Below are positions 3,233 through 31,804 of a DNA stretch of 64,000 nucleotides, piece by piece (within the stretch, counting starts at the first letter, position 1; the number at the start of each line of letters is the position of its first letter). Source of the stretch: an uncultured Eubacteriales bacterium (GTDB taxonomy: Bacteria > Acidobacteriota > Aminicenantia > Aminicenantales > UBA8522); NCBI GenBank assembly GCA_964445305.1, contig CAYUKK010000005.1:6614-70613 (forward strand). The letters run 5' to 3'. The position numbers and the translations under genes were made by a program. Under the pieces are notes generated by a model. It worked only from the letters and a program-made list of their open reading frames with translations. It ran no database searches and was not told where the DNA came from.

Positions 3233-3256
3233 AAGGGAGGTGCGAGGAGATATTGG

Positions 3257-6054: not shown

Positions 6055-6062
6055 GCGAATAC

Positions 6063-11520: not shown

Positions 11521-11532
11521 CGCACACTCCTT

Positions 11533-12285: not shown

Positions 12286-12321
12286 CGTTTGATCTCCTTC
12301 CCGTTACTAAAGTCTTCGGTG

Positions 12322-13146: not shown

Positions 13147-14191
13147 GGTTGCTTACCTTGTCCAGGACTTTGATGATGTCGATCCCAACCGGGCAGAGGC
13201 TGATGCAACGGCCGCAGCCCGTGCACATAACCTGGTCAAAATTCTCGACAAAATAGCGAAATTTATGGAGAACCCTCTGGCGAAGACGCGACGCCTTGTC
13301 CGGTCGGGGGTTGTGGCCGGAAGAATGCATGGTGAAATCGGGGAATTGGCAGTTGTCCCATGTCCGAACCCTCTTGCCGCGCAAGGGGGATATGGAGTCG
13401 ACTTCGTCGTTGATGTCAAAGCAATGGCAGGAAGGACAGAGATAGGTGCAGATGCCGCACTGGATGCAGCTCATCGATTCCTCATCCCAGAGAGACGAAT
13501 CGAACAGGCCCTGGAGAGCTGCGGCCCTCTCCTTTTTCGTCCCCTTGACCCCGCGGACGAGCTTTTTCCTCGCTTCGGCGTGCCTGGCCTGGACTTTCTT
13601 CTTGTCGTCCGGTTGGGGCTCTTTGAAGAGTTCTCTCGCCGCCTGGACGAGCTTTTCTCCGTTGGTCGAAAGGGTTTTTACATAATAGCTATCCCCTAAG
13701 TCGGTGAGCAAGATGTCAAGCCCTTCTTCGCCGTGGGGTGAACCCTCGACGGAAAGGCAAAAGCAATTCTCCCAGGGCGGCGTGTGGCAGGCCAAACCGA
13801 TGAGCGAAGCTTGGCTCCGACGCTTCCAGTAGTAAGGGTCGGTAAAGTCGCCGCCAAAAACTCTATCCAGGAGCCAGATAGCCCGGGCATCGCAGGGCCG
13901 GACGCCGAAAATAACGAATGGCTTGCCGTTGGGCAAGACTTCTCTGACCTCAAGGGTCTCGCGATTCCCCTCGATTGTTTTCGAGAATTCGAGGAAGACT
14001 TCGCGCTGAGGAAAGATAAGCGCTTTGGCCGGAAGTGTGGTTACGGCAAGCTCGAGGCTGGCGGGGGCATGGTCGATGATTTCGTAATTCCAGCGTTCGT
14101 TTTCATCTTTTCTCGGCGCATAAACCGTCCAAGCATTGAGCTTTTCCATCCACAGAGGCAAGGACTTTTTTTCAAGTATCTTGTCCATCAT
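13136..14191 (-). CDS. iron-sulfur oxidoreductase, sulfhydrogenase beta (HydB) / AsrA-like (FlxB-like)
   Basis: Start placed at MMDKILEKK (RBS GGAG...AGGT). CIQCGICTYLCPSC and CTGCGRCISLCP motifs. Overlaps the neighbouring hydG-like gene. Confidence 0.62.
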   Translation of the reverse strand: MMDKILEKKSLPLWMEKLNAWTVYAPRKDENERWNYEIIDHAPASLELAVTTLPAKALIFPQREVFLEFSKTIEGNRETLEVREVLPNGKPFVIFGVRPCDARAIWLLDRVFGGDFTDPYYWKRRSQASLIGLACHTPPWENCFCLSVEGSPHGEEGLDILLTDLGDSYYVKTLSTNGEKLVQAARELFKEPQPDDKKKVQARHAEARKKLVRGVKGTKKERAAALQGLFDSSLWDEESMSCIQCGICTYLCPSCHCFDINDEVDSISPLRGKRVRTWDNCQFPDFTMHSSGHNPRPDKASRLRQRVLHKFRYFVENFDQVMCTGCGRCISLCPVGIDIIKVLDKVSNHGA

Positions 14192-14192
14192 C

Positions 14193-15221
14193 TTACCTGA
14201 TGAAATCTCCAGGGTCATCGTCTTTGAAGGAGGATATGAGCGGCGGCTGGGCGGGGTCGAAGCCAACCTCGTAGCCGAAGAGCTCCTTGGCCTCCTTTTC
14301 CAGCTTCTTGTTGAGAAAGCGAAGGGGAATATCCAGCGGACAGGCCCTTTCGCATTCACCGCAGTCGATGCATCGGCCAGCCAGATGAATGGCCCGAACG
14401 AGGTGGTAGACGAAATTCTCGGATGACTCGGCTGACCTCTGGATCCACTTCACCTTGTGGGCTTTTTCCTCAGCCGTCGTGTCGGCTGTGACAGCCAGGT
14501 TGATGCTGTCGACGACGCATTCATCGCAGTAACACATCGGACAAACCGACCGACAGGCATAGCAACGGATGCACTTGTCGAGTTGCTCTTTCCAGAAACG
14601 CCACCTTTCTTCCTGGCCGAGCGCTTCTATTTTCTCGACGGACCCGAAGGGCTTGTCCACCGCCTTCCTGGTTTTTTCGCCCGCCAGGATGTCGTAGAGG
14701 ACTGGAAAGTTGGCCTGGCATTCCAGGCAACGCTCGGCCAGGAGCTCCTCGACCGGGAATTCGACCTTTCCGTCCGCCGTCGTGATGAGGAACCGGTCGG
14801 CGGCCAGCTCGATTTTCTTGGGTTTTTTCCCTCCCAGCTTTCGGGCAAGCTTGTGGTCATCGATGACGCCGGCTTTCTCGCAAGAAACGCCGAGGACGTA
14901 GATATCCTGACGGTCGATGAATTTTTCTTGGAGGAGAACGACGATGGCCCGGCTGTCGCAGCCCTTGACTACTACCCCCACCGGCCTTTTGTCGGGTTGC
15001 TTCTGCCTGGCTTTTCTTCTCTTCTCGTCAACGAGGAAGCGCGCCAGGTTGTGAACGCACGTCGGGTCCCAGACGAGCTTCTCGACATCCTCTGGAGTCT
15101 TGATGAACACGGGAATGGCCTGCCAGCCGTTGCCGCCCGTCCCATAGCCGATGAGGTATTTGATTTTCCCTTCACGCAGGAGCTTCCTCGCCTCCTCCTT
15201 GAGGTCCTCGAAATTAGCCAT
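14193..15221 (-). CDS. FrhB/FdhB-family-like iron-sulfur protein (FlxC-like) with two C-terminal 4Fe-4S ferredoxin motifs
   Basis: Start at MANFEDLKEEARK; its ATG shares one base with the mvhD stop (TGATG). CIRCYACRSVCP and CIDCGECERACP. Confidence 0.5.
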   Translation of the reverse strand: MANFEDLKEEARKLLREGKIKYLIGYGTGGNGWQAIPVFIKTPEDVEKLVWDPTCVHNLARFLVDEKRRKARQKQPDKRPVGVVVKGCDSRAIVVLLQEKFIDRQDIYVLGVSCEKAGVIDDHKLARKLGGKKPKKIELAADRFLITTADGKVEFPVEELLAERCLECQANFPVLYDILAGEKTRKAVDKPFGSVEKIEALGQEERWRFWKEQLDKCIRCYACRSVCPMCYCDECVVDSINLAVTADTTAEEKAHKVKWIQRSAESSENFVYHLVRAIHLAGRCIDCGECERACPLDIPLRFLNKKLEKEAKELFGYEVGFDPAQPPLISSFKDDDPGDFIR

Positions 15222-15643
15222 CAGGGGTTTCTCCTCAATTTTGCCTGGGGACCCAGCGGTTTGAGCTCTTTGACGAAATCCTTGATCACCTGGGTATATT
15301 TGGTGCCCTCGGCAGCCGAGACCCAGGACATCTGGAACCTCTCTGGCTCCAGCCCGATGAACTCCAGGAGTTTCTTGACAAAATAGATGCGCCGCCGGGC
15401 GTAGTAGTTTCCTTTGATGTAATGGCAATCGCCAGGATGGCAGCCCGAGACGAGCACACCGTCAGCGCCCTTATTGAAGGCGGTAAAGATGTAGAGAGGG
15501 GAGACGCTCCCGGAGCACATGACCTGGATGGGGATGACGTTGGGCGGATATTCCATCCGTGATACACCGGCCATGTCGCTCCCGGCCGAGGAACACCACT
15601 TGCACAGAAAAGCAACAATTTTCGGTTCGAATTCCTCCGCCAT
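15221..15643 (-). CDS. mvhD: MvhD / FlxD-like protein (methyl-viologen-reducing hydrogenase delta-subunit family; 2Fe-2S electron-transfer partner of HdrA)
   Basis: Start at MAEEFEPKIVAFLCKWC (ATGA overlap with the hdrA stop). Conserved CKWCSSAG ... VMCSG ... SGCHPGDCHY cysteines. Confidence 0.75.
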   Translation of the reverse strand: MAEEFEPKIVAFLCKWCSSAGSDMAGVSRMEYPPNVIPIQVMCSGSVSPLYIFTAFNKGADGVLVSGCHPGDCHYIKGNYYARRRIYFVKKLLEFIGLEPERFQMSWVSAAEGTKYTQVIKDFVKELKPLGPQAKLRRNP

Positions 15644-15645
15644 CC

Positions 15646-17592
15646 TCAGCCTCCCAGACACGCGCTGATCATATCGTGAACCTGGCTCAAAGTCAGGTTC
15701 TTCACCTGGATGGCCGCCCGCAAGCAGGTGGCCGAGCAGGTTCCGCATCCCTCGCAGAGGACTTCGTTGACCTCTGCTTTATCATCCTTCAAGGCGATCG
15801 CATCATAGGGACAGACTTGGACGCACATCCCGCAGCCTGTGCAGAGGGTGGGGATGACTTTGGCCACGGTTGGGGAGTGGTAGAGTCTCTCCTGGGAGAG
15901 AACAGCCACCGCCTTGGCGGCAGCACCGCTGGCCTGGGCCACGGCCTCAGGGATGTCCTTGGGAGCTTGCGCGGCTCCCGCCAGGAAAACGCCCGAGGTG
16001 ACGCTTTCGACTGGCCGCAGCTTGGGATGCGCTTCCGCCAAGAAGCCGTCCTTGTCCAGGGCCAGTTTGAGCTTCTTGGCCAGTTCTTGGGCTCCTTTGG
16101 CCGGACGCATCGCCTGGGCGAGAACAACCATGTCGGCGGCAATTTCGATGTGTTTGCCCGTCAGCGTATCGACTCCCCAGACTTTGAGCTTGCCCTTATC
16201 TTCGAAAACCTTCGACACTTTGCCCCGCAGGTAGACGACGCCATCCTCTTCGATGGCTCTCTGGACAAATTCCTCGTAGCCTTTGCCGCCAGAGCGGATG
16301 TCAATGTAAAAGACGTACGCTTGTCCGTCATGGACATGATGCTTGTAGAGCATGGCGTGCTTGGCTGTATACATGCAGCAGATTTTGGAGCAGTAAGCGC
16401 AGTGGTTTTCAGGGTCACGCGAGCCCGAGCACTGGATGAAGACGACTTCTTTGGGTTCCTTGTGGTCAGAGGGACGGAGAATCTGGCCTCTCGTGGGGCC
16501 TGACGCAGAGCAAAGTCGCTCGAACTGAAGCCCGTCGAGAACATCAGGGTACTTCCCGTATCCATATTCGGCCATGTTCTCTTTATCATAAAGGTCATAG
16601 CCAGTGGCCACGATAATCGCCCCCACTTCTTCTTCGATGATTTGTGGCTTCATATCATAGTCAATGGCCTTGGCCTCACAGACGTCGGCGCACTTGCCGC
16701 AGGCGATGGGCAAAAGGCCGGGGCACGCGTTGATGTCGAGGGTGTAGGAAGCCGGAATGGCTTGAGGAAAGGGGATATAAATGGCTCTTCTTCCCGTCAG
16801 CCCGAGTTCAAACTCGCTGGGGACAACGATGGGGCAGACCTTCGTGCACTCATCGCAGAGGTTGCACTTATCGGGGTCGACGTAAGTCGGCTTCTTCAGG
16901 ATCTTGACTTTGAAATTGCCCACATACCCGGAGACATCCTGGACTTCGCAGTAGGTCATCAGCCTGATTTTTGGATGCTTGGAAGCCTCGACCATTTTGG
17001 GAGTAAGGATGCACTGGGAGCAATCCAGGGTGGGGAAAGTCTCGGAAAGCTGGATCATATGGCCGCCGATGGAGGGGCTTTTCTCCACGAGAATGACGTC
17101 AAACCCGCTATTGGCCAAATCAAGAGAAGCCTGGATGCCGGCAATCCCCCCGCCGATGACAAGGGCCTTGCGCGTCACGGGGACGCTGACGGCCTCGAGG
17201 GATTCATTCCGATGGACTTTTTCTACAGCGCTCTTGGTGATTTTGATGGCTTTCTGGGTGGCTTTGTCTTTTTCCTTGTGGACCCAGCTACATTGCTCCC
17301 GGATGTTGGCAATTTCGCAACGATAGGCATTCAGTCCAGCCAACCCCGAAGCCTTGCGAAAGGTTGTCTCGTGGAGAGTCGGCGAGCAGCAGGCGACGAC
17401 GACGTTGCTTAATTTTTTCTCTTTGATAGCCTGGACAATGAGGTTTTGCCCCGGGTCCGAGCACATGTAGACATAATCCTCGGCATGAACAACACCGGGA
17501 TGTTTGATGAGCTCCTGAGCGACTTTCTTGACATCCACTGTACCGGCGATATTGATGCCGCAGTGGCAGACAAAAACTCCTGTGCGTTTCAT
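15646..17592 (-). CDS. hdrA: heterodisulfide reductase subunit A (FAD, multiple Fe-S clusters)
   Basis: 648 aa. Near-colinear with methanogen HdrA: GVFVCHCGINIAGTVD, VIGGGIAGIQASLDLANSGF, CNLCDECTKVCP, FIQCSGSRD, and C-terminal CTGCGMCVQVCP / CEGCGTCSATC. Confidence 0.88.
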   Translation of the reverse strand: MKRTGVFVCHCGINIAGTVDVKKVAQELIKHPGVVHAEDYVYMCSDPGQNLIVQAIKEKKLSNVVVACCSPTLHETTFRKASGLAGLNAYRCEIANIREQCSWVHKEKDKATQKAIKITKSAVEKVHRNESLEAVSVPVTRKALVIGGGIAGIQASLDLANSGFDVILVEKSPSIGGHMIQLSETFPTLDCSQCILTPKMVEASKHPKIRLMTYCEVQDVSGYVGNFKVKILKKPTYVDPDKCNLCDECTKVCPIVVPSEFELGLTGRRAIYIPFPQAIPASYTLDINACPGLLPIACGKCADVCEAKAIDYDMKPQIIEEEVGAIIVATGYDLYDKENMAEYGYGKYPDVLDGLQFERLCSASGPTRGQILRPSDHKEPKEVVFIQCSGSRDPENHCAYCSKICCMYTAKHAMLYKHHVHDGQAYVFYIDIRSGGKGYEEFVQRAIEEDGVVYLRGKVSKVFEDKGKLKVWGVDTLTGKHIEIAADMVVLAQAMRPAKGAQELAKKLKLALDKDGFLAEAHPKLRPVESVTSGVFLAGAAQAPKDIPEAVAQASGAAAKAVAVLSQERLYHSPTVAKVIPTLCTGCGMCVQVCPYDAIALKDDKAEVNEVLCEGCGTCSATCLRAAIQVKNLTLSQVHDMISACLGG

Positions 17593-19079: not shown

Positions 19080-20242
19080 CGAGCTGCCTCCTTGATTGCT
19101 TTTAAAATATCATTAGGGTCATGGACCCAGCCGCCGCAGTGGGGAACACCGATGGCCGGCGCTTGGCCGAAAGCGCAGCGTTCAACCTCACGACGAATTT
19201 GGCCGAGGTTGATTTCCGGAACGACAAAAGCCTTGATTTTTTTTGCCAGTTCCCTTATCCGTTCCTCGGGGAAGGGCCAGACGGTGATCAACCGGAGTGT
19301 GCCAACTTTGATGCCCGCCTTTCTCGCTTCCTGGATCGCCTTAACAGCCACTCGCGAGGTGATCCCGTAGGAGACGACCACTACTTCAGCGCCATCTGTC
19401 TCTTCTTCCCTGTATTCAATGATTTTGTGGGCGTTTTTTCGGATTTTATCGTTGATGTGTCGGACGCACCAATCCTGGCATTCGGCGTTGATGATGGGGT
19501 AGCCTCTTTCATCGTGGGTTAAGCCGGTCGTGTGGAAACGGTAGCCATCGCCGGCTTTAACCATAAACGGCACGAGGTCTTTGTCCGGCTTGTAGGGTCG
19601 GTACTTATCCTTGGGGCCCTCATACCATTTTCTCTCTACGACCTCAATTTCGTCAGCGGGGGGAATGACAACTTTCTCGTGCATATGGCCGACGCACTCG
19701 TCGGTCATGAGGAATGTCGGCACTCGATACATTTCCGAGAGGTTGAAAGCCTTGATGGTCAGGTCGAAACACTCCTGCGGCGAATCAGGGGAGAGGGCGA
19801 TGATTTCGTAGTCGCCGTGAGAGCCCCATCTGACCTGCATCATGTCCGCTTGGCCTGTCAGAGTCGGCAGCCCCGTCGATGGGCCTCCTCGCTGGACGTT
19901 GGCGATGACGATGGGGACTTCCATCATGGCGGCGAGGCCGATGTTTTCCATCATTAAGGAAAAACCGGGTCCAGAAGTGACGGTCATGGATTTTACGCCA
20001 GCCCATGAGGCTCCGATGAGGGCGGCGACAGAGGCAATTTCGTCCTCCATCTGGATGAAAACTCCACCCACGTAGGGGATTCTTTCGGCGAATCTTTCCG
20101 CCGTTTCGGTCGAGGGGGTAATGGGATAGCCGGCGAAAAAGCGGCAACCGGCAGCTAAGGCTCCCTCGGCGATGGCAAAATCGCCGTCGAGGTAATGGGC
20201 GCCGGTGAGAACACCCTTAGGATCGGCTTTCACTTTTTTCAC
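19076..20242 (-). CDS. 2-oxoacid:ferredoxin oxidoreductase alpha subunit
   Basis: 388 aa. VLTG...AIAEGALAAGCRFFAGYPITPSTE and FLMTDECVGHMHEKV. Confidence 0.85.
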   Translation of the reverse strand: MKKVKADPKGVLTGAHYLDGDFAIAEGALAAGCRFFAGYPITPSTETAERFAERIPYVGGVFIQMEDEIASVAALIGASWAGVKSMTVTSGPGFSLMMENIGLAAMMEVPIVIANVQRGGPSTGLPTLTGQADMMQVRWGSHGDYEIIALSPDSPQECFDLTIKAFNLSEMYRVPTFLMTDECVGHMHEKVVIPPADEIEVVERKWYEGPKDKYRPYKPDKDLVPFMVKAGDGYRFHTTGLTHDERGYPIINAECQDWCVRHINDKIRKNAHKIIEYREEETDGAEVVVVSYGITSRVAVKAIQEARKAGIKVGTLRLITVWPFPEERIRELAKKIKAFVVPEINLGQIRREVERCAFGQAPAIGVPHCGGWVHDPNDILKAIKEAAR

Positions 20243-20492
20243 CTTCTTCCTCCTCTTTCATGAGAGTCACGTAGAGGGCAAATTCTGGGCAGATGGCCTC
20301 GCAAAGCTGGCAATAGCAGCAGTTTTCTTCGTGGACAATGCGGGGCGGGTGATAGCCTTTTCGGTTGAATTCCTCAGAAAGCTCAAGGACATCGCGGGGA
20401 CAATACTCAACGCAAAATCCGCATCCCTTGCAGCGTTCTCTATCGATGTGGATCTTGCCCTTTTTCGGTTTGAGGTCACCAAAATAAACCAT
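20217..20492 (-). CDS. 4Fe-4S dicluster ferredoxin, delta subunit of the four-subunit oxidoreductase
   Basis: Start at MVYFGDLKPKK (SD GAGAGGAAAC). CKGCGFCVEYCP and CCYCQLCEAICP. Confidence 0.7.
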   Translation of the reverse strand: MVYFGDLKPKKGKIHIDRERCKGCGFCVEYCPRDVLELSEEFNRKGYHPPRIVHEENCCYCQLCEAICPEFALYVTLMKEEEEGEKSESRS

Positions 20493-20500
20493 GTTTCCTC

Positions 20501-21382
20501 TCACATCAAGCTTTTTTCGACGAGCAAAGGCTTGGGGTCAATATAATGGAGGTCGAGACGCAAATCTTTCTCCGCGCAGCCGAGCGCCATAGCCAGGAGT
20601 TGAGTGAAATAGAGAACGGGCATCGTCTTGAATTCGGGATACAAGCGAGCTGTCTCTTTCTGCCGGTGGTCAAGGTTAAAAGCGCAAAGAGGGCAACTGA
20701 CAGCCACGACTTCGGCACCCTGCTCGCGAGCCGAGTTGAGGATCCTGTAAGTCCGCTCGGCCACCACCTCCGGCTTGTCGACTGTCTGGTAAGAAGCGCA
20801 GCATTCGGTCTTGTAAGGGAAGTCGACGGGCTGAGCGCCCAGAGCGGCCATCAGGTGTTCTAAAATCATCGGGTTCTCGGGATCATCGAGGCCAATTTCT
20901 TTGGGGCGGACGAGGAGGCAACCGTAGTAGCTGGCGACCTTCAGGCCCCTTAGGGGCCGCCGGACCTTCTGGGCGATCGTGTCCAGCTTGATGTCGTCGC
21001 GGAGAAGCTCGAGAAGATGGCGGATGCGGATATCCCCAGCATAGGCGATTTTCTCCTCATCCATGAACTTGTGGATTTTCGTCAAACTCTCCGGGTCGGC
21101 CTTGATTCTTTCATTGACTCTTTTGAGGGTGTTGTAGCACATCGCACAGAGGGTGAGGACGGAATCCGAGCCGCTTTCTTTAACCCGGATGAGGTTACGG
21201 ATAGAAGCAAGATGATGGATCAGGTCATCAGCAGCTAAGGAGTAAACCGTGCCGCAGCAGTTCCAGCGCTTGAGCTCTTCGACCTCAAGGCCGAGCTCTT
21301 TTAGGGAGCATAATGTCGAATCTTCAAAATTCTTAGCATTGCTCTTCAGAGTGCAGCCCGGATAATAACTTATTTTCATCAT
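20501..21382 (-). CDS. hdrB: HdrB-like CCG-domain protein (two cysteine-rich CCG domains; the second reads CCAS)
   Basis: 293 aa. YYPGCTLKS...RWNCCGTVYS...LCAMC and YYGCLLVRP...ECCASYQ...CPLCAF. Confidence 0.78.
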   Translation of the reverse strand: MMKISYYPGCTLKSNAKNFEDSTLCSLKELGLEVEELKRWNCCGTVYSLAADDLIHHLASIRNLIRVKESGSDSVLTLCAMCYNTLKRVNERIKADPESLTKIHKFMDEEKIAYAGDIRIRHLLELLRDDIKLDTIAQKVRRPLRGLKVASYYGCLLVRPKEIGLDDPENPMILEHLMAALGAQPVDFPYKTECCASYQTVDKPEVVAERTYRILNSAREQGAEVVAVSCPLCAFNLDHRQKETARLYPEFKTMPVLYFTQLLAMALGCAEKDLRLDLHYIDPKPLLVEKSLM

Positions 21383-21423
21383 AATTTCCTAAAAATATGA
21401 ATTGAACTGTTATGATGGCCATT

Positions 21424-21831
21424 TTACGAAGTGAACTTACGGAAATTGCTGATGAGGGCAATCGGTGGAACGCTCGCTTTTTCCTCATCGGAGAGCTCAC
21501 GCACCTCAACATGATCGCATCGCTTGCGGAGCAGAATCTGACGAACGGCTTCCATGACCTCAGCGATCTTGATGCCCTTTGGGCAACGCACATTGCATGT
21601 ATAGCAGGAAGCGCAGACCCAAACGGATCGAGATTGAAGGAGCTCATCTTTTAGGCCAAGCTGAGCGAACCGGATAATTTGGTTGGGCAAAATGTCCATC
21701 TGGGAAACAGCCGGACAGCCGGCCGAACACTTGCCGCACTGGTAGCAGGCCAGAAGTTTTTGGCCGCTCAATTCCTCCACTTTTTCAACAAAACTATCCC
21801 TAATCTTTTTCTTGGATAGGGTAACTCTCAT
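21424..21831 (-). CDS. hdrC: HdrC-like 2x[4Fe-4S] subunit
   Basis: CYQCGKCSAGCP and CASCYTCNVRCP. ATG at 21831 (MRVTLSKKK) is preferred over the GTG at 21849. Confidence 0.75.
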   Translation of the reverse strand: MRVTLSKKKIRDSFVEKVEELSGQKLLACYQCGKCSAGCPAVSQMDILPNQIIRFAQLGLKDELLQSRSVWVCASCYTCNVRCPKGIKIAEVMEAVRQILLRKRCDHVEVRELSDEEKASVPPIALISNFRKFTS

Positions 21832-21956
21832 TGTTATTTCTCTTTCCACCCCAAAAATTCAAGTTGGCTTGGTTTTGATGCATTTTCCTGGCCAAAAATG
21901 ACCCTTCAGTAAACCACAATTTGAATTTGCTGTCAAGAAAATCAGGAGGTGAAGTG

Positions 21957-24128
21957 CTAATGCCCCCCAAAAAACAGAAGAAGAAAGAGACACATGAGGT
22001 TGAGCAAGAAGATGCTTATCAAAACGAAAGGCAAGCCCGTCAGAGGGATGAGCAAGGTGCTCGTGAGCAAAGCCCCTCCAAAAGAACCGAGAAGGTCCAG
22101 CCCGTAGCCGAGACCGTAATCGGCTTTGGATTTAAGATAGAGCTGGTTCGAGACAATGAAGAGGTCGCCTCCCAGATAACCCAGGGCGAAGAGGATGAGA
22201 AAAGCCAGAACCTCGGGCGGTCTTGCCCGCATCATTATTAGGAAAACGAGAAGAAGGAAAAGAAATCCAGCCTGGATAAGAGCCAACTGGCGGAAGGAGA
22301 AACTCCGTTTTTTCGACCTGACCCAGCTTCCTATATAAAGCCCGAGCATAAAAATGGAGAGGAGGAGGGCAATAGCGCCATAAAGGTATCCATAAAGAGC
22401 TTGAAACCAGACGAGGAGGATGATTTCTGTGATGATCGTCGTAAAACCCATGACGGCCAAGGGGACAAGCGGCAATGGACTTTTCTTCTTCCGGATGAGC
22501 AGCCAAACGGAAACAAGGCAAAAAAAGGCCAGGGGGAGAGTAAGAAGCCAGAGGGGAGAGAGTTGGGAGAAATACTTGAGGCCCTTGACTTCGAGACCGC
22601 GGAAATGCGCGCTCCAGAGCATGATCTGGAAATAGAAACTGATGGGGGCCAAGTCCGTGTTGACCCGGCTCTGTCTCGATTTCATCGCTGTCTCCAGTCG
22701 GTCGCGGCGCAGAGGATGGAGCCGGGATAAAAGAGAAGAGCGAGTGAAATACAGGGTCTCGAGGCCAAGGGCTTCCACCCTTTGGGCGAGCACTTCAGGC
22801 TCCACCTGAATCGACTCCGAGGAGCCAAGGAAAACATTCCTGGCGCCAGGAATGACTTCGACATGGGGAAAGACTTCTTTCAGGGTGTGGTAAAGAGAAG
22901 CTAAGAATAGCTCCAGCTCGCCTCCGATGTAGTCTTCCGCCGAGGCGACAATGAAGGAGAGAACCCCAGCTGAAGTGAGCTTTCTCTTGGCCAGGCGGAA
23001 GAATTCAAGGGTATAAAATCGATTGAGTTGGGCCGTGCTGGGATCGGGCAAGGAAATGAGAATGCCATCGTAGGAATTGTCGGCCTTTTGGAGGAAAGCG
23101 CGTCCATCCTCAAAGAAAAGATGAACCCGGGCGTCGCTCAAGGCCCTTTTTTCTTCTTCAGGGAGGAAGAGCCTGGAGAGTTGGATTACTTCCGGGTCGA
23201 GTTCGACATAATCGACCCGGGCTATGGGGTATTTGAGGATCTCCATCAACGTTCCTCCAGCCCCGCCGCCAATGAGGAGGATTCTTTCAGCTTCCGGTTT
23301 CTGAAGGAGGGCGAAATGGACAGATTCTTCAGCCGAAGCCCGATCAGGATGGGAATAAACAGGCGCGCTATTGCTATAAAGAGAGGTCTGTTCCTCGGTC
23401 TTGATGACCTGAAGCTTTCCGTACCGGGTGTCCCGGCTGGCCAGAAGATGGTAGGGCCGCCAGTAAAGCCTTTGTGTGGGCATATCGAGAAAGATGAACA
23501 CGGTGAGAACAAGTGTCAGAAGAGCCGGGATAACCAGCCTTTTCTTTTTGTCGACGAGCGAAAAGAGAAGCCACGTCCCCGCTCCTCCAATTAAGGCGGC
23601 TGCCTGCCAGGCACTGAAATGGGGCAGGAAGAGAAAATAGACCGTTAGCCCGGCGATGGTGGCTCCCAGTGATTCGAGCCTGTAAACGTCGTTGATTCGT
23701 CCGGAAGCTTTCCCAACGTTGAGGACAAAGAGCATTCCGAGAGGGAAACTGACGAGAAGACAGAGGCCGAAAGAAAGCCCGAGGACGGGCAGGAGGCCTA
23801 TGAGTTCACCTGGGAGGACCCGCATGATGAAACGGAAAACCCGCACCCCGGCCAGAGAAAGGACGATAAAAAAGATGACCCCATAATAGATTTGGGAGAG
23901 GTTTTTTTGAAGGAAAGACCAGCGGGAAGCAAGAATGCTTCCCAAGCCCCCCCAGAGGAGCCAGGATGCCAAGACGACCCCGAAGGTCAGCTCATTGCCG
24001 TAGAAATGGGCACTGAACTCCCGAAGGAGGAGAATCTGGGAGGAGGTTGCCAAAAATCCCAGGAGAAAAGGGGGGAAGGAATCCTTTAAGCCCAGATTCC
24101 AGGGATGGGGTTTTGGCAGAAGCGGCAT
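21957..24128 (-). CDS. polytopic membrane protein with a central spermidine-synthase-like (SpeE / class I MTase-fold aminopropyltransferase) domain
   Basis: 723 aa with many predicted TM helices at both ends. Central ILLIGGGAGGTLMEILKYP...VDYVELDPEVI...LISLPDP matches the SpeE-fold dinucleotide motif. Confidence 0.6.
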   Translation of the reverse strand: MPLLPKPHPWNLGLKDSFPPFLLGFLATSSQILLLREFSAHFYGNELTFGVVLASWLLWGGLGSILASRWSFLQKNLSQIYYGVIFFIVLSLAGVRVFRFIMRVLPGELIGLLPVLGLSFGLCLLVSFPLGMLFVLNVGKASGRINDVYRLESLGATIAGLTVYFLFLPHFSAWQAAALIGGAGTWLLFSLVDKKKRLVIPALLTLVLTVFIFLDMPTQRLYWRPYHLLASRDTRYGKLQVIKTEEQTSLYSNSAPVYSHPDRASAEESVHFALLQKPEAERILLIGGGAGGTLMEILKYPIARVDYVELDPEVIQLSRLFLPEEEKRALSDARVHLFFEDGRAFLQKADNSYDGILISLPDPSTAQLNRFYTLEFFRLAKRKLTSAGVLSFIVASAEDYIGGELELFLASLYHTLKEVFPHVEVIPGARNVFLGSSESIQVEPEVLAQRVEALGLETLYFTRSSLLSRLHPLRRDRLETAMKSRQSRVNTDLAPISFYFQIMLWSAHFRGLEVKGLKYFSQLSPLWLLTLPLAFFCLVSVWLLIRKKKSPLPLVPLAVMGFTTIITEIILLVWFQALYGYLYGAIALLLSIFMLGLYIGSWVRSKKRSFSFRQLALIQAGFLFLLLVFLIMMRARPPEVLAFLILFALGYLGGDLFIVSNQLYLKSKADYGLGYGLDLLGSFGGALLTSTLLIPLTGLPFVLISIFLLNLMCLFLLLFFGGH

Positions 24129-25207
24129 TTACCGTTTTCCAGCTCGATTTTTTCGACGTCGAAACCAAGACGCCGGATGATGAGGTTCTGGCAGCGCGGG
24201 CAGTACGTGTGCTCACCCATGTGGCCGGGGACATTCCCAATGTAAACATAATTGAGGCCTTCTTCCCTGGCCACATTCCGGGCTTTCTCCAGAGTCGACA
24301 CCGGAGTGGGAGGGAGGTTCTTGATGAGATACATGGGGTGAAAACGGGAGAAGTGGAGGGGAATATCGGGTCCAACCTCCTTCCTGATCCACCGACACAT
24401 GGCCCGAATTTGTTCCATGTCGTCGTTGAGCTGGGGAATGACCAGGTAGACAAGCTCCAGCCAGACTTGGCTCTGGCGGACGATCTTGATCGCCTCGAGG
24501 ACGGGCTTGAGCTCTCCCCGGACATAGGTCTTATAGAATTCCTCCGAGTAAGCCTTGAGGTCAATCTTAATAGCTTCCACGACTTTGGTCAGGTCGAGGA
24601 GGGGCTCAGGGCTGATGTGCCCACCGGTGACGACACAGTTTTTAATTTTATGACGACGGGCCTCGATGGATGTGTCGTACATGTACTCAAAGAAAACGAT
24701 GGGTTCTGTGTAGGTATAAGAAATGGATGGACAATCGAACTTGAGGGCGGCGTTGACGACAGCGGTGGGGGGTAAATCGAAATGGCGGACTTGCTCAGGC
24801 CGGACCTGGGAGATTTGCCAGTTCTGGCAGAACTTGCAGTTGACATTGCAGCCAGCCGTAGCGATGGATAGGGATTTCGTTCGCGGCAAAAAATGGAAGA
24901 AAGGCTTTTTCTCGATGGGGTCGACGTTCATCGTGCAGGCTTTCCCATAAACGAGCGTGTAATAAATGCCCCCATCGTTTTCCCGGACACCGCAATAGCC
25001 CCGCTCCTTGTCACCGAGGCGGCAGAGTCGGGGGCAGAGTAAGCATTCGATTTCCCTGTCCGGGAGTTTCTTATAGTATCGGGCCTCGACTCGAGAGAGG
25101 TTGGGCTCGGCTTGGAAAGCGAAAAGGTTCCACAACGATTCTCCTGTTCCTGAACCCAAAAGCAAGCTCGAACCGGCCAGAGTCTTGACGAAATTCCTCC
25201 TCTTCAT
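24086..25207 (-). CDS. AmmeMemoRadiSam-system-type radical SAM enzyme (AmrS-like) with an N-terminal twin-arginine (Tat)-like signal
   Basis: 373 aa. ECLLCPRLCRLGDKERGYCGVRENDGGIYYTLVYGK...VDPIEKKPFFHF...AGCNVNCKFCQNWQISQ (CX3CX2C). N-terminus MKRRNFVKTLAGSSLLLGSGTG...AFQA. Confidence 0.72.
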   Translation of the reverse strand: MKRRNFVKTLAGSSLLLGSGTGESLWNLFAFQAEPNLSRVEARYYKKLPDREIECLLCPRLCRLGDKERGYCGVRENDGGIYYTLVYGKACTMNVDPIEKKPFFHFLPRTKSLSIATAGCNVNCKFCQNWQISQVRPEQVRHFDLPPTAVVNAALKFDCPSISYTYTEPIVFFEYMYDTSIEARRHKIKNCVVTGGHISPEPLLDLTKVVEAIKIDLKAYSEEFYKTYVRGELKPVLEAIKIVRQSQVWLELVYLVIPQLNDDMEQIRAMCRWIRKEVGPDIPLHFSRFHPMYLIKNLPPTPVSTLEKARNVAREEGLNYVYIGNVPGHMGEHTYCPRCQNLIIRRLGFDVEKIELENGKCRFCQNPIPGIWA

Positions 25208-25230
25208 GAGTAGCCTACCGTTTAATATTA

Positions 25231-26127
25231 TTATACCTCATCCTCAAGAATTTGTATTTCCTTGAGGCTGGCCACTCCGAGCCCCATTTTTTCAGCTGTC
25301 GATAGGTATTCGGGCTTTCGCCTTTCTTCCTCGAGGGAGGGAAGCCCTTTGCGGGCGCGAAGATCTTCGATCACCCGCCAGCCGACCGAATCGGCCGCTA
25401 CCGGGTCGACAGCAAAAATGAGCATCCCGCACGGTTCGGCCCACTGAGCATGGAAGCTCGGACCCCGGTGATACTGGACACGGAGAGCATCGAGGATGGA
25501 AAGTCGGTGCTTGTTCTTTATGGGCGGGGTGTCGAACAGTTCCGCCACATAAGGATTGCAGTGGGCATCGTGGTATTTGTTTGGATTATGGATGGCGCCG
25601 AAGTAATTCTTCAGGCTGGCCGTGATACCCGCCAAACCATGGTCTTTGAGGATAGCCAGGCTGATCGAAGCCGTGACAAAGTTAGTCTGGATGGTCGAGA
25701 AAAGGCTGCCGATATTGGCGTGGGAAATGAGCTCTGTTTCGTAGCCAGCTCCTTCTGTGTCGGTGGCGAAAACCTTAAGCCGTTGACTGTCCAGGCTTAG
25801 CCGGAAGCCAGCTTCACGAAGTTCCCGATTGCTCCTGTCCCAGATGATGATATTTTTTTCCTGCAGACCCGACCTCGTCAGCAGGGTTACGAGGGCGAGG
25901 CAGACTTCGGGCCGAGTCGAAAGAAGCCGGCCAGCAATCGTGTTGATCTTGATGCCGACTCTATCCGAAGGCTTAAAGACCAGGCGCAGCGCTTCCTTGG
26001 CCTCATGGGAGCCAAAGAGTCGCGACAGGCCGCGCTCGACCATCAAAGCCACCTGGGAAGGGTTGAGCTCACCAGCGGCGCTGAGCACCCCGGGGCTGCG
26101 GATAACGGCGACTCGAGTTGGCTTCAT
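25231..26127 (-). CDS. DUF362-family protein
   Basis: 298 aa. RVAVIR...FKPSDRVGIKINT...TRPEV...IIIWDRS is the DUF362 pattern. Confidence 0.55.
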   Translation of the reverse strand: MKPTRVAVIRSPGVLSAAGELNPSQVALMVERGLSRLFGSHEAKEALRLVFKPSDRVGIKINTIAGRLLSTRPEVCLALVTLLTRSGLQEKNIIIWDRSNRELREAGFRLSLDSQRLKVFATDTEGAGYETELISHANIGSLFSTIQTNFVTASISLAILKDHGLAGITASLKNYFGAIHNPNKYHDAHCNPYVAELFDTPPIKNKHRLSILDALRVQYHRGPSFHAQWAEPCGMLIFAVDPVAADSVGWRVIEDLRARKGLPSLEEERRKPEYLSTAEKMGLGVASLKEIQILEDEV

Positions 26128-26238
26128 TTTCCAATTCCATAATTACTCCACATCAGAGACTCTGTCAATCGCCGTGCCCGGTGCTGAATTGAAAATAGAT
26201 TCTTTCTATTGTAAATTGTATAAGCTCAAATAAGGAGA

Positions 26239-27189
26239 ATGAAGATAATGAACAGAAGAGGCGCGTTCAACCTCGGCTGGTTTCTTGCGTTCTTCCTCTT
26301 TCTTGTTTCTCCGCTTGACTCACGGCCTTCCTCTTCTCTTCTCGCCCTCCTCCCCGAAGTTCCCGGTTGGGAGCTGGCGGAAGAGCCCCGGCTCTATCAG
26401 CCTGATAACTTGTTCGAATACATCGATGGCGCGGCTGAATCCTATTTGAGCTACGGATTCAAAGAGCTTGTTGTTGCCCAGTATAAAAGGCCTGATGGGC
26501 CAGGCACTTTGACCCTGGAAATTTATCGCCTGGATTCGACCAAGGCTGCCTTCGGCATTTATAGTGCGGAAAGATACCCGGAAAGTCGATTCCTCGATGT
26601 CGGGGTTCAGGGATACATAGAAGACGGAAGCTTGAACTTCGTCCTAACCGATAAATATGTCAAGCTCCTCAGCTTCGAGATGGGGGAGGCCGCAGAGAGA
26701 GTGCTCATGCTTTTTTCCCAAAAGGTAGAGAAATTGGCCGGCGAAAAAGGAGCGTGGCCAGAGGCACTTCAGTTGTTCCCACGCGCGGGGCTTATTGCCA
26801 ACAGCGAGAAATTTATCCTTCGTAACTTCCTGGGATACGGTTTTCTTCACGACGGCTACTTGGCCAGCTACCGGGTGAACGGACAGGAATTCGAGCTTTT
26901 CCTCGTTGAAGGGAATAGCGACGAGGAAGCTAACGTCATGCTTGAGGAGTTCTTGACTCAGTCCGCCCGACGGGGGAGCTTGACCGAAAGGGTGGAAGCC
27001 GGCTATCATATCCAGGATCGATATATCCAGCACATATACTTGGCAAAAATGAGGAATTTCTTAGCCGGAGTTATACGCGTCCGCGACGAAGCAAGAGAGA
27101 CAGGATATCGCTATCTTAATTTACTCCTTGAATCCTTGAAGAAAAAGGCGGCAGCTTCCCACGAGTTGCCGCGTCCCGGCCTTTTTTGA
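26239..27189 (+). CDS. secreted hypothetical protein (N-terminal signal peptide)
   Basis: 316 aa. MKIMNRRGAFNLGWFLAFFLFLVSPL hydrophobic leader. No recognisable catalytic motif. Confidence 0.5.
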   Translation: MKIMNRRGAFNLGWFLAFFLFLVSPLDSRPSSSLLALLPEVPGWELAEEPRLYQPDNLFEYIDGAAESYLSYGFKELVVAQYKRPDGPGTLTLEIYRLDSTKAAFGIYSAERYPESRFLDVGVQGYIEDGSLNFVLTDKYVKLLSFEMGEAAERVLMLFSQKVEKLAGEKGAWPEALQLFPRAGLIANSEKFILRNFLGYGFLHDGYLASYRVNGQEFELFLVEGNSDEEANVMLEEFLTQSARRGSLTERVEAGYHIQDRYIQHIYLAKMRNFLAGVIRVRDEARETGYRYLNLLLESLKKKAAASHELPRPGLF

Positions 27190-27202
27190 TTGGCCAGACG
27201 AA

Positions 27203-27580
27203 TCAGTCCTCCTCAGGTCGGGGAGGGTTCTGCTGAAGGTAGTCCTTGAGCTTGGCGAATTCTGTTTCCAGGCAAGCGAGCGCTTTCTGGGCTTGGACCA
27301 GGTTCTCGTCCCGGCCGGCCAGTTCGAGAGCCAAAGAAGCCTTCTGAAGAGAGGCCAAGCTCAAATTAGCCGAAGAACCTTTCAAGCTGTGGCCCAACTT
27401 CTGGACGGCAACGAAATCCTGGCGATGGATGGCGTCCTTGATAAGTCGGGATTTTTCATTGTAGTCGTCGATATACATCTTGAGGAGCTCTTCGAGAAAG
27501 CTGGCGTCGCCCCCGACTCTTTCGAGCACCTCCTGGTAGTTGATAGTAAGATTCCAATCTGGATGAGCATGGTTAGGCAT
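27203..27580 (-). CDS. Hpt (histidine phosphotransfer) domain protein
   Basis: QKLGHSLKGSSANLSL is the Hpt active-site His motif. Downstream of and overlapping the REC-GGDEF gene. Confidence 0.55.
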   Translation of the reverse strand: MPNHAHPDWNLTINYQEVLERVGGDASFLEELLKMYIDDYNEKSRLIKDAIHRQDFVAVQKLGHSLKGSSANLSLASLQKASLALELAGRDENLVQAQKALACLETEFAKLKDYLQQNPPRPEED

Positions 27581-28514
27581 TCTTGACCTCCCCAAAGGTT
27601 TCTACGGCCAAATCGTGGACGACAGTGCAGTTCCGTCCCTGATTTTTTGCCTGGAGAAGAGCGGCGTCAGCCGAACGAATGAGCTTTTCGGCGGATGGCG
27701 GCGAAAGGCTGTCGCTCGACGCGCAGCCTGCTGAAATAGTTACGGGCAGGAGCTCTGTTCCAGCTTTGATTCCACGCCGAGCTACGGAAGTGCGCAAGCG
27801 TTCAGCAATTTTACGGACCTCGAGGACATTGCAATTTGGAAGAACGATGAGAATTTCATCGCCCCCGTATCGACCTATTTTGTCCGATTTGCGGACTTTT
27901 TTGGCGATTCGGGAAATGATTTGCAGGAGGGCCTCGTCGCCGAGGTCATGGCCGTAAAAATCGTTAATCTTTTTGAAATAGTCGATGTCCAGCATGATGA
28001 CCCCCACCGGCTTCTTCTCCCGGTGACTGCGCTCTAGCTCTTCCCGCAGAAACCTGGCAATCTCGACGCGATTCCAGAGTCTGGTTAGGCTATCGCGACT
28101 GGCCAGGTCTTTAAGTTGCCGCTGGACAAAGAGAAGCTTGTCTTCGAGGTCAATGATGCGCCGGCCTGTCTGGAGGCGGGCACGGAGCTCAAGGAAATTG
28201 ACGGGCTTGGTCATATAGTCGTCGGCACCAGAGGAGAGACCGGCGATGATATCCTGTTTCCGGTCTTTGGCCGAAAGGAGGATGATGTAGGTGTACCTGT
28301 AATTTTTCCGCCGGCGGATTTTTTTGCAGATTTCCGTCCCATCCATACCTGGCATCATCCAATCGAGAATGGCCAGCCGGAGAGTCTCATCCTGGAGGCA
28401 TTCCCAAGCTGCCTCACCGCTTCGGGCGATGACAACCTCATAGCCCCAGTTCTTCAAATTTTTTTCGAGAATTCTCGAGTTAATCAGGTCGTCTTCAGCG
28501 ACAAGGATTTTCAT
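27573..28514 (-). CDS. response regulator with receiver and GGDEF (diguanylate cyclase) domains
   Basis: 313 aa. MKILVAEDD...[13 protein letters not shown] receiver with phospho-Asp. GGDEF-domain motif RYGGDEIL. Confidence 0.8.
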
Positions 28515-31500
28515 GTCATGTTTCCTTTTGCGGCATCCGTGTGCTTGCTCTTGGCGCTCATGGATTGTCTCTCGCTCATGACCTGAGCAATCGTTTCAGC
28601 CAGTTGCTGGGAATTGAGCGGCTTGGAGATATAACCGTCCATGCCCATGGCCAAGCATTTTTCCTTATCGCCCTTCATGGCGTGGGCGGTCATGGCGATG
28701 ATCGGCGTGTAATTTCCCGTCTGCCTATCTTTCTCGCGAATGGCTTTGGTCGCTTGGAATCCATCCATGACGGGCATCTGGACGTCCATCAAGACGAGCT
28801 CGAAATTTCCCTTTTCCAGGGCCGCCAATGCCTCCTGGCCATTCATCACGCCTGTTACTTGATGACCCTGCTTCTCGAGCATGTAGATGGCCACCTTCTG
28901 GTTAACCAGGTTGTCCTCGGCGATGAGAATCCGAAACGTCTGGCGGGGAAGCGACGTCTGGGGAGGGCGCTCAGCCGGCGGAGATGGTTGCTCGGGCTGG
29001 ACAGTGGGCACGCTTGGCCAAGGGAGGCCGAGTACTTCGAGGAGGCTTCTCTTCAGTTCAGATGGCTTGATGGGCTTAGTTAAGCACGCTCGAATCCCGA
29101 GCTTGAGCCAGGGAGTGGTTTCGATGCGACTGTTGTTCGAATTCATCATCACCAGCGTCGATTTGGCGATAGAGGGGTTGTTCTTGATGTAGTCGAGAAT
29201 GAGGAAGCTATCATGGCCGGGCAAGTTGGCGTCGAGGAGAATGAGAGGAGTAGCCTTTTCCTTGTCCCGGATTTCGTCGAGGAGGACAGTAACTTCGTCA
29301 GCGCTCTCGGCGCAGGTGACATCGAATCCCCAGAAGGAGGCCATTCTGTTTAAGAAATGGAGAGAAGCTCTGTTGTCTTCAACCAGGAGAAGGCGGTTTT
29401 TCTCTCCTTGCCAATGGAGAGGCGAGGAGAGTTTCTCGGCTGATTCCTTGACCCGCCGAAAGCGAGTCGTGAAATAGAATTTGCTTCCTTTTCCGACCTG
29501 GCTCTCTACCCAGATCTTCCCTCCTAAGAGCTCAACCAGTTGGGAGGAGATGGATAGGCCTAGACCGGTGCCGCCAAACTTGCGTGTCATCGAGCTATCG
29601 GCCTGGGCGAAAACATCAAAGATGATTTTTTGCTTATCTTCGGGAATCCCTATGCCTGTGTCGGCAATGGTGAAAAGAAGCATCGTTTCTTCGGAGGAAC
29701 TGCTGACTTCCTCGACCCGGACGACAATCTCGCCTTTTTGTGTGAACTTGATGGCGTTTCCAACGAGGTTGATGAGAATCTGGCGGAGCCGGCCAGGGTC
29801 GCCAATGAGTTGGGCATCCAGCTCGGGGTGGATATCGACAATGAGGTCGAGCTTATTTCGATGTGCCTGGATAGCTAACGGGGTGAGCGTTTCAAAGATG
29901 AAATCCTCCAGGCGGAAGTTTGTCCATTCGAGCTCGACCTTTCTTGCTTCAATCTTGGTAAAATCGAGGAGGTCGTTGATCAAGTTCAGCAGGCTCTCGG
30001 CAGAGGACTTGATGCCCCGGATGTATTCTTTTTGCTCGGGCGTGAGTGAGGTGTCCAGAGCCAGTTCCGTCATCCCGAGGATCCCGTTCATCGGCGTTCG
30101 GATCTCGTGACTGATGTTGGCCAGGAACTCGCTTTTGGCCTTGTTCGCTTCCTGGGCTTGCCGCCTCGTCCGGACGAGCTCGGTCACGTCGATCAAGTTA
30201 AGCAGAAGTCCGTTGTAATGGCCGTTCGAATAGATAGGCTTGACTCGAAAAATTAGTTCTTTTTGGCCGATGGCTTTCTGTATCTCAAAGGGGGCTGAGG
30301 ATACGTTTTTCTTGAAAGTGTCGATACACGCTCTCAGGTTGTCAGCTGTCTGCTTACCGTGGAATTCCCAGATCGGGCGGCCAATGACTTCCTCGCGTTT
30401 CTTGTTGAAGAGGTTCAAGAAATAATCATTGACCTCAAGGATAATGTCCTGGCTGTTGGCAAAAGCAATGCCCTCCTCAATTCCCGAGATAATGGCCATG
30501 AGCTTTTCCGATTCGTTCTGGATGGCCTTTTCTGTTCGCCTCCGGCTGAGGGCTTCGATAAAGATGGCGGCCAGCGATTCGACGGCCGCTTGGTCATCTT
30601 CGTCATAACCACCTTCTTTATTGGCTAAGACGAGAACGCCAGCCACCCTGTCGACCTGTTTCATTGGAACGCAGAGGAGAGAGGTAAGAACAGGATGGCC
30701 AGGAGGCGTTCCCACGCGTAAGGGATGGGTGGAGGGAGTATTGATGATATGGGAATGCCCATCCTTGAGGGGAAGGCTCCATAAGCCACGGATTCTCATA
30801 TTCTTGAGAAGAGAAGAGGCCTCATCCTGGGGGATGCGGCAACCCTCGTAACCCGCCGTGTTCATAGTAATGACGTCCAGGTGTCCGCGGCTGTTAATTT
30901 CTCCAATGAACCCAAGGGGACTCTCTGTTAGCTCTTCGGCGATGTCGAGGCAGGCAAGAGCGATGTCGGCGTCTGATTCGGCAAAAAGCACTTTCTGAAG
31001 GAGTTTATTGATTCCCTCGAGAAGCTTTTTCTGCTTCAGGATTTGGCTTTCGGCTCTTTTTCTTTCCGTGATGTCCTTGTCCATGCCCCGGTAGCCGAGG
31101 AGTTCGCCCTTCGCATCGAGGATGGGCAGGGCATTGGTCAACAAACATACGAGTCGTCCATCTTTGGTGAGGTTCCAGTTTTCGAAATCAAGGATGGGCT
31201 TTTTTTCTGCTCGAGCTTGAGCGAAAAAGGCCGACGCTCGCTCCGCCTCACTTTCCGGCATCAGGTCAAAAGGCCTTTTCCCCAGGATCTCTTCAGGTTC
31301 GTATCCAAGAATTTGTTTAACCCTGCCGGAAGCAAACGTGTAGACCGCGTCGGCGTCGACTTCCCAGACCCAATCGGCCGAGCTGAGGACGATGTCTTCA
31401 AAGCGCTTCTGGGATAAACGAAGGTCTTCGTGGATTCTCTTTTGCCCAGAGATGTCGCGATAGATGCCGAAAATCGCCTTGAGCTGGCCATCGACGATGA

Positions 31501-31804
31501 TGGGCGAGACGATGACGGAAACCTGGACAGCCGGCCCATCATTGGCCTGGCGGGTTGTTTCAAAAGAAACCCGCTCGCCGTTGGCCACTCTCTGAGTGAT
31601 AGATACGGCTGAGTCGAACTCCTCGGGTGGAACAATGAGGGTATCGATCTTTTGGCCGAGAATTTCCCCGGGCTCAAACCCGAACATCCTTCTGAACTCT
31701 TGGTTAAACCTGAGGATATGGCCCTCCCGGTCGGCGATGACCATTCCTTCCCGAGCGTCTTCAAAAACCTTTTCAAAACAGAATTCTTCTTCCGGCCGGC
31801 TCAT
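28511..31804 (-). CDS. hybrid sensor histidine kinase (multiple PAS and GAF domains, HisKA, HATPase_c, two C-terminal receiver domains)
   Basis: 1097 aa. His[16 protein letters not shown]. ATPase G-boxes DTGIGI and [10 protein letters not shown]. Receivers LLVEDN...DANLPGHDS and ILIAEDN...[11 protein letters not shown]. Confidence 0.85.

Follow-up and report, generated by a model that had tools for sequence, protein, structure and literature searches.

The window analyzed here is a 64,000 nt (64-kb) stretch of contig CAYUKK010000005.1 (assembly GCA_964445305.1), and, to judge by the names of the closest homologues (Candidatus Aminicenantes metagenome-assembled genomes, MAGs), it most likely belongs to that lineage. 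Our subject is a run of three genes on its minus strand. They encode a DUF362 protein (25231-26127, 298 aa), a radical S-adenosylmethionine (SAM) enzyme of the AmrS type (24086-25207, 373 aa) and a polytopic membrane protein of 723 aa with a central SpeE-like domain (21957-24128). The AmrS gene starts 23 nt past the DUF362 stop, and its own stop overlaps the start of the membrane protein gene by 43 nt. The trio had been noted in an earlier reading of the DNA without database searches (the sequence-only reading). Open reading frames (ORFs) and profiles bore out its coordinates and gene content, including an N-terminal twin-arginine (RR) leader on AmrS, and the overlap it had put at ~43 nt was indeed of that length.

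The DUF362 protein matched PF04015 with 63.8 bits (gathering threshold 24) at profile positions 1-199 of 200. AmrS passed TIGR04337, the AmmeMemoRadiSam radical SAM model, with 369.3 bits (cutoff 220) at aa 42-372, and its radical SAM domain matched PF04055 (E 1.6e-17). The Cys motifs C55/C58/C62/C72, C120/C124/C127 and C336/C339/C361/C364 were conserved in an alignment of 54 sequences and also in one of 28 representatives. The radical SAM cluster motif C120-x3-C124-x2-C127 (CNVNCKFC, 24827-24850, minus strand) was invariant in both. The solved structure nearest by sequence was PflA (E 3e-6, aa 118-275).

The first 33 residues of AmrS, MKRRNFVKTLAGSSLLLGSGTGESLWNLFAFQA (25109-25207, minus strand), form a leader with a conserved RR pair. 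Residues 2-8 (K-R-R-N-F-V-K) fit the n-region motif S/T-R-R-x-F-L-K. The h-region contains 14 uncharged residues (TLAGSSLLLGSGTG) and is rich in Gly and Ser; no 19-residue segment reached 1.6 on the Kyte-Doolittle scale, i.e., it lacks the hydrophobicity of a transmembrane (TM) helix. Each of the 120 best homologues (67-100% identity) opens with M-x-R-R-x-F-[FLI]-K, after which come a run of Gly, Ser, Ala and Leu and a conserved L-Y/F-A-F. R3, R4 and F6 were invariant in 54 aligned homologues (67-86% identity). When the window protein was aligned with 28 divergent representatives (37-54% identity), R3 was still invariant and R4 was conserved to at least 90%, and the other leader positions varied. 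Leaders of the [ST]-R-R-x-F-L type occurred in 28 of the best 150 representatives of 50%-identity clusters. The AlphaFold model of AmrS had predicted local distance difference test (pLDDT) scores below 50 at residues 1-35 and a confident fold thereafter, and such disorder is as expected for a signal peptide. Since the leader is conserved as protein sequence, the start cannot be moved downstream. Judged by this conservation, the RR leader is real and selected and not an artefact of start codon choice. Among the window ORFs checked against Pfam, all of them larger ones, none matched Tat machinery.

We compared the locus with a set of 82 loci, which consisted of 80 loci from a scan with one genome per species (started from a 10-sequence alignment), the window and locus L004. 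The loci were picked by similarity to the leader-bearing clade, and their frequencies are not those of the whole AmrS family. All counts of neighboring genes are lower bounds because many contigs were short. AmrS carried an RR leader in 58 loci, a Sec-like signal peptide or TM anchor in 14 and no leader in 9; one locus was unclear. The RR loci came from Terriglobia (Acidobacteriota), Eisenbacteria, Zixibacteria, Planctomycetota, KSB1, Poribacteria, Latescibacterota, Omnitrophota, Bacteroidales, several deltaproteobacterial groups and two archaea (Aenigmatarchaeota and Altiarchaeota). The sequence-only reading had called a Tat-exported or membrane-anchored AmrS unusual; with RR leaders in 58 of 82 loci, the leader is no oddity of a single gene. 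That reading had also named, as a possible refutation, a leader that acts only as an uncleaved membrane anchor, common in the family, and as to frequency alone the count bears this out. AmrS relatives with classical Sec-type or lipobox-like N-termini were seen in Omnitrophota, Elusimicrobia and other MAGs (L041, L043, L044 and L030).

The 723-aa protein matched PF01564 at aa 269-391 (96.9 bits). Its AlphaFold model (pLDDT 87.8, predicted template modeling score 0.87) showed a SpeE fold set between two groups of seven TM helices each. As delimited by the DSSP helices of the model, the N-terminal bundle comprises aa 14-222 (23463-24089) and the C-terminal bundle aa 525-722 (21963-22556); the SpeE-fold domain between them comprises aa 227-484 (22677-23450, all on the minus strand). 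Foldseek aligned the domain to 1uir, 3anx and 7xif with a TM-score of ~0.74 on the target (E 2.5e-13 for 1uir and 3anx). PF01564 and Foldseek agreed with the central spermidine-synthase fold named in the sequence-only reading. Homologues are labeled 'fused MFS/spermidine synthase' by NCBI. The Foldseek search of the PDB returned SpeE structures only, so the TM bundle received neither the MFS nor any other class.

Topology was derived from the DSSP segments of the model together with loop charge counts (positive-inside rule). In 33 homologues from many phyla, the mean number of Lys plus Arg per loop was 5.1/0.06/3.2/0.33/2.2/0.45/2.7 before the SpeE-like domain and 3.2/0.18/3.5/0.73/2.1/0.24/1.0 after it. 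By the positive-inside rule, this alternation places the N-terminus and the C-terminus inside and the SpeE-like domain outside. TM7 and TM8 were independently consistent with this placement, and the domain is therefore predicted to face outward.

The adenosyl-binding residues E309, D341 and R370 of the domain were kept, with R370 invariant. In the window protein, GGGAGG replaces the GGGD/EG loop, and the acid that selects decarboxylated SAM (dcSAM) is gone. Position 290 was V, L, A or I in 26 of the 33 homologues, and the four commonest residues there included no acid. The catalytic Asp position of the D-x-x-D-P loop is taken by S359 in the window (ISLPDP) and by N, D, G and S in 15, 4, 4 and 3 of the 33 homologues, respectively. 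All equivalog scores were below the cutoffs (PRK03612, 149 vs 472; PRK00811, 117 vs 260; TIGR00417, 92 vs 250; NF037959, 36.8 vs 40). On the basis of these residues and folds, the SpeE-like domain is an adenosyl-ligand-binding domain. A function as spermidine synthase is unlikely, because the dcSAM acid and the catalytic Asp are missing, the domain is predicted to face outward and no equivalog cutoff was reached.

The DUF362 gene adjoined the AmrS gene in 21 of the 58 RR loci and in 0 of the 24 others (Fisher p=2e-4). In a rough neighbor-joining tree, all DUF362-linked AmrS proteins, including that of the window, fell in one large RR clade. By tblastn, a SpeE-like gene was a neighbor in 46 of the 82 loci, AMMECR1 in 40, Memo in 37 and DUF362 in 21. 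The restriction of DUF362 to RR-type AmrS and the 46 loci with a SpeE-like gene beside AmrS supported a functional link among the DUF362, AmrS and SpeE-like genes. The DUF362 protein of the window is without a leader, and only 5 open codons precede its ATG. DUF362 proteins beside AmrS had an RR leader of their own in 13 loci; none was present in Aminicenantes and in one Zixibacteria locus (L009). A role of DUF362 as cytoplasmic chaperone for the leader of AmrS in twin-arginine translocation (Tat) was considered and ruled out, because the DUF362 proteins outside Aminicenantes and L009 have their own RR leaders. DUF362 belongs to Pfam clan CL0471 together with LarA/DUF2088 (PMC11770544).

Memo was mostly fused to AMMECR1, and in 32 of the 35 assessable loci its N-terminus resembled a signal peptide or bore a lipobox. 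The same kind of N-terminus was present in 115 of 120 homologues of one Memo-AMMECR1 fusion, Aminicenantes copies included. Neither Memo nor AMMECR1 was found in the 64-kb window by tblastn at E 1e-4. In L004, L011 and L019, which are of the Aminicenantes type, both were likewise missing within ~8-10 kb. The sequence-only reading had proposed to look for these partners elsewhere in the genome. At another locus, Aminicenantes MAGs do carry a Memo-AMMECR1 fusion with a signal peptide (P0415 and P0444), whose gene overlaps by 4 nt that of a second AmrS of 368 aa. This paralogue shares 46% identity with the window protein and has an RR leader as well (MSPDRREFMRFSLAAGAGLVLGAG). The locus with the fusion and the paralogue lies at 10001-12597 of L085 (an Aminicenantes metagenome contig), is also present in L086 and L087 and adjoins another OFOR operon. 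Other lineages, Terriglobia among them, have one AmrS gene, which stands between DUF362 and Memo-AMMECR1. The presence of two AmrS proteins in Aminicenantes and of one elsewhere, together with the single RR clade in the tree, makes the window gene look like the DUF362/SpeE-linked paralogue that remained after a duplication.

A DUF6599 gene (26239-27189, plus strand, 316 aa; PF20244, E 1e-43) is oriented divergently from the trio. The N-terminus of its product is a signal-like segment (MKIMNRRGAFNLGWFLAFFLFLVS) that includes an RR pair (MNRRGAFNLGWFLAFF). DUF6599 recurred beside the cluster in L004, L011 and L019 (tblastn, 47-52% identity) and in L005, L007 and L018 (19-29%), and the homologues at those loci had signal peptides or lipoboxes. 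The weak homologues of the Terriglobia loci L005, L007 and L018 bear a lipobox and hold the same position.

Domain fusions of AmrS relatives also pointed to the extracytosolic side. P0145 and P0153 consist of a single N-terminal TM helix, an FMN_bind domain with an SGAT flavinylation motif and AmrS, with no later hydrophobic segment. P0126 and P0123 start with a signal peptide, which is followed by a CBM11 or beta-propeller domain and then by AmrS. P0137 and P0134 combine FMN_bind, six NapH-like TM helices and AmrS, and the even number of helices places AmrS on the FMN_bind side. An internal 'leader' in P0123 turned out to be an alignment extension only, with neither RR nor a hydrophobic segment.

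In NapH-like proteins, the N-terminal FMN_bind domain lies on the extracytosolic side and is thought to move electrons across the membrane (PMC8238504). Most such FMN_bind/NapH-like systems have no known function, and radical SAM, Memo and AMMECR1 are not mentioned in that study (PMC8238504). NapH-like/FMN_bind or DsbD_2 genes stood beside AmrS in 9 of 24 non-RR loci vs 0 of 58 RR loci (p=4e-6). Their restriction to non-RR AmrS is the pattern expected of dedicated electron conduits, and the FMN_bind/NapH-like and DsbD_2 modules are candidates for a dedicated electron supply to a radical SAM enzyme. FMN_bind/NapH-like (Fer4_5) or DsbD_2 modules were fused to AmrS relatives or adjacent to them in P0145, P0153, P0137, P0162, P0134 and P0132 and in L047, L061, L063, L070, L071 and L084.

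The RR leaders on two proteins of the cluster, the Sec or lipoprotein signals on Memo-AMMECR1 and DUF6599, the predicted outward position of the SpeE-like domain, the fusions to extracytosolic domains and the electron modules of sister lineages led us to the following interpretation. AmrS, DUF362 and the SpeE-like protein would make up a widespread module that is exported by Tat and acts outside the cytoplasm, and the window would hold the form that it takes in Aminicenantes. We assign this interpretation a probability of about 0.6. Tat is the expected route for a protein that needs its Fe-S clusters before export. AmrS would fold and gain its Fe-S clusters in the cytoplasm, and the RR leader would then direct it through the Tat pathway. 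The leaderless DUF362 protein would probably ride along as a partner bound to AmrS (hitchhiking). AmrS would then act at the outward side of the membrane, beside the 14-TM protein of the overlapping gene, whose outward SpeE-fold domain more likely binds or handles SAM than makes spermidine. The substrate would probably be a component of the cell envelope.

Several points weigh against export. SAM, Fe-S assembly and low-potential electron donors are all cytoplasmic. The searchable literature yielded no exported or periplasmic radical SAM enzyme, and no transmembrane electron conduit was seen in the window. The AmrS proteins of the 14 loci with a Sec-like signal or plain TM anchor would need to cross the membrane unfolded, and we know of no route for Fe-S insertion outside the cell. 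AmrS was leaderless in 9 loci, and in 5 of them (L057, L067, L070, L072 and L084) it stood beside a signal-bearing Memo, so that exported partners can apparently be served by an AmrS that stays in the cell. The outward placement of the SpeE-like domain was obtained from the positive-inside rule and an AlphaFold model. The leader of the window protein scored 13.8 bits on TIGR01409, below the cutoff of 16.7, and the AFQA sequence, with Phe at -3, is not an AxA site. It also had no match to the PF10518 profile. The description of this leader as a "textbook" Tat signal ending in AFQA was therefore overstated, also in view of its Gly/Ser-rich h-region. LFA|F is a possible and better candidate for the cleavage site than AFQA. 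In favor of export, three relatives tested on TIGR01409 scored above the cutoff (17.6 bits for a relative from L009, 20.9 for the L085 paralogue and 26.7 for a relative from L083), and many relatives have AxA-type sites (AYA, AMA or AQA).

The main rival to Tat export is a tether on the cytoplasmic face. According to this explanation, the RR leader is an uncleaved tether or docking peptide, and AmrS stays inside, perhaps against the 14-TM protein, where it modifies substrates before their export. The location of SAM, reductant and Fe-S assembly in the cytoplasm is established knowledge and speaks for the tether. The five loci with leaderless AmrS beside signal-bearing Memo-AMMECR1 make cytoplasmic action on export-bound partners plausible, and the sub-threshold TIGR01409 score and the apparent lack of an AxA site in the window leader also count in its favor. 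However, a TM helix would require a longer and less polar h-region, and an invariant RR pair is specifically the hallmark of Tat recognition. DUF362 partners bear RR leaders of their own. In the fusions, AmrS shares its side with FMN_bind, CBM or propeller domains, with no TM helix in between, and the outward SpeE-like domain would lie on the side opposite to a tethered AmrS. We consider the tether unlikely.

It is also conceivable that AmrS is a Tat substrate but that the trio encodes three envelope proteins independent of each other, whose genes are syntenic by chance. Within the available DNA, 37 of the 58 RR loci had no DUF362 gene and 25 of the 58 no SpeE-like gene, as independent proteins would allow. 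These absences are nevertheless to be read with the neighbor counts as lower bounds, many contigs being short. The association holds across more than 15 phyla in which gene orders and strands vary, DUF362 is confined to loci with RR-type AmrS (p=2e-4), and in the window the genes are packed with the 43-nt overlap and the 23-nt spacing. Independence of the three proteins is, in our view, very improbable. That the leader is an annotation artefact with a true start downstream, an objection foreseen by the sequence-only reading, has next to no chance, because the leader is conserved as protein in all of the 120 closest homologues and in distant phyla and the ATG at 25207 sits 23 nt past the DUF362 stop.

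A more far-reaching version of the export interpretation would make this the first radical SAM system outside the cytoplasm. In such a system, AmrS and DUF362 would be exported by Tat, SAM would pass through the bundle of the 14-TM protein to the outward, SAM-adapted SpeE-like domain and on to AmrS, and electrons would be delivered by NapH/FMN_bind or DsbD-like modules in sister lineages. An envelope molecule would be modified with the help of secreted Memo-AMMECR1, which would provide a first functional handle on the Memo and AMMECR1 families. We regard this complete scheme as doubtful. Its proposal that the 14-TM protein supplies SAM to the outside is speculation, which is consistent with the loss of the acid specific for dcSAM.

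The canonical AmmeMemoRadiSam system consists of AmrS (TIGR04337), AmrA/AMMECR1 (TIGR04335) and AmrB/Memo (TIGR04336). The window AmrS passes the model of that family with all Cys motifs kept, and AmrS proteins of the same clade adjoin Memo and AMMECR1 in many related loci. Canonical AmrS proteins, among them P0139, P0141 and the triple fusions P0173 and P0194, are leaderless and presumed to be cytoplasmic, whereas the window AmrS has its RR leader. The canonical partners AMMECR1 and Memo are absent from the window, where DUF362 and the 14-TM SpeE-like protein take their place beside AmrS. Unlike in the canonical system, the Memo-AMMECR1 proteins that accompany this AmrS clade bear export signals. 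Long C-terminal fusions of 1019-1152 aa were initially suspected to be AmrS-SpeE fusions and were found to be triple fusions of AmrS, AMMECR1 and Memo. The searchable literature yielded no work on what AmmeMemoRadiSam does, none that treats AMMECR1 and spermidine synthase together and no description of an exported AmrS or of these partners; Burroughs et al. 2019 may already describe some of the neighborhoods.

PflA (PDB 3c8f and 8fo0) shares the radical SAM core with AmrS. It is a cytoplasmic activase of 245 aa for a glycyl radical enzyme, whereas AmrS adds N- and C-terminal Cys4 motifs and the leader, and no glycyl radical partner is present. Tat-exported Fe-S enzymes with a hitchhiker, such as the small and large subunits of [NiFe] hydrogenase or DmsAB, likewise pair an RR-leader Fe-S protein with a leaderless partner, which corresponds to DUF362 in Aminicenantes. 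In other lineages, AmrS and DUF362 both have leaders. Once exported, the enzymes of the hitchhiker systems need no cytoplasmic co-substrate, whereas every turnover of a radical SAM enzyme requires SAM.

Flavinylated conduits of the NapH/NosR type (PMC8238504) are fused to AmrS relatives or adjoin them as FMN_bind plus Fer4_5 or as DsbD_2, but neither the window nor any of the 58 RR loci has them. The membrane aminopropyltransferases of PRK03612 and NF037959 have the SpeE fold and N-terminal TM helices in common with the 723-aa protein. The latter differs by GGG[VLAI]GG in place of GGGD/EG, by N, S or G at the catalytic Asp position in most of the 33 homologues, by the second 7-TM bundle and by the predicted outward domain.

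Because it depends on SAM, on Fe-S assembly and on a strong reductant, radical SAM chemistry is regarded as strictly confined to the cytoplasm. If our interpretation is correct, a conserved module of many phyla whose enzyme and partners all bear export signals or face outward would challenge this assumption and would imply new routes that bring SAM and electrons to the envelope. The module links Memo and AMMECR1 to a membrane-associated setting and to DUF362, DUF6599 and the SpeE-like 14-TM protein. Both Memo and AMMECR1 have human homologues, and with this link the question of what these proteins do becomes one of feasible localization and binding experiments.

Downstream of the trio, a spacer of 107 nt (21850-21956) precedes hdrC (21424-21849) and hdrB (20501-21382), all on the minus strand, and the sequence-only reading had given this gap the same length (~107 nt). 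The gene order after the spacer is hdrC, hdrB, ferredoxin, three OFOR subunits, hdrA and FlpD/MvhD. The adjacency to hdrCB-OFOR-hdrA was kept in Aminicenantes-type loci (the window, L004 and L011) and was seen elsewhere only in L060. HdrB was near AmrS in 4 of the 58 RR loci, 3 of which are of the Aminicenantes type and share the synteny of the window. Judged from the compared loci, the hdr genes are a lineage-specific neighbor and no conserved part of the module.

No terminator- or promoter-like site was detected in the 107-nt spacer, and co-transcription of the trio with the hdr genes is possible but unsupported. The sole promoter-like site near the cluster was a sigma-70-like match, TTGACA-18-AATTAT (26139-26168, minus strand), 12 nt 5' of the DUF362 start. 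It is a candidate for the operon promoter by consensus only, as 3 promoter-like sites were found vs 3.0 expected in shuffled sequences. A search of 20000-27500 with Rfam revealed no riboswitch or other element, with one chance microRNA match.

Directly upstream of the DUF6599 gene, 27203-31804 (minus strand) encodes an Hpt protein, a GGDEF response regulator and a PAS/HisKA hybrid kinase of 1097 aa. The same arrangement occurred in L002 and L004, and it may be a regulatory neighbor. Downstream of the hdr/OFOR genes, 9853-17592 (minus strand) holds genes for an HdrA-like protein, FlpD/MvhD, two polyferredoxins, a NAD_binding_1/DHODB Fe-S protein and a FAD_binding_2 flavoprotein of 555 aa, the ORF of which runs ~96 residues upstream of the domain. 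This run of redox genes resembles a flavin-based electron-bifurcating complex. At 47340-48734 (minus strand), the window encodes another radical SAM protein, of 464 aa (PF04055, E 1e-16). The ORFs that flank it (46179-46739, 46779-47336 and 48742-49368) had no Pfam match, and together with the radical SAM gene they may form a separate cluster for maturation or peptide modification. At 1642-8980 (plus strand), the genes gcvT, gcvH, gcvPA and gcvPB of glycine cleavage are directly followed by glyQ and glyS, an ordinary housekeeping context.

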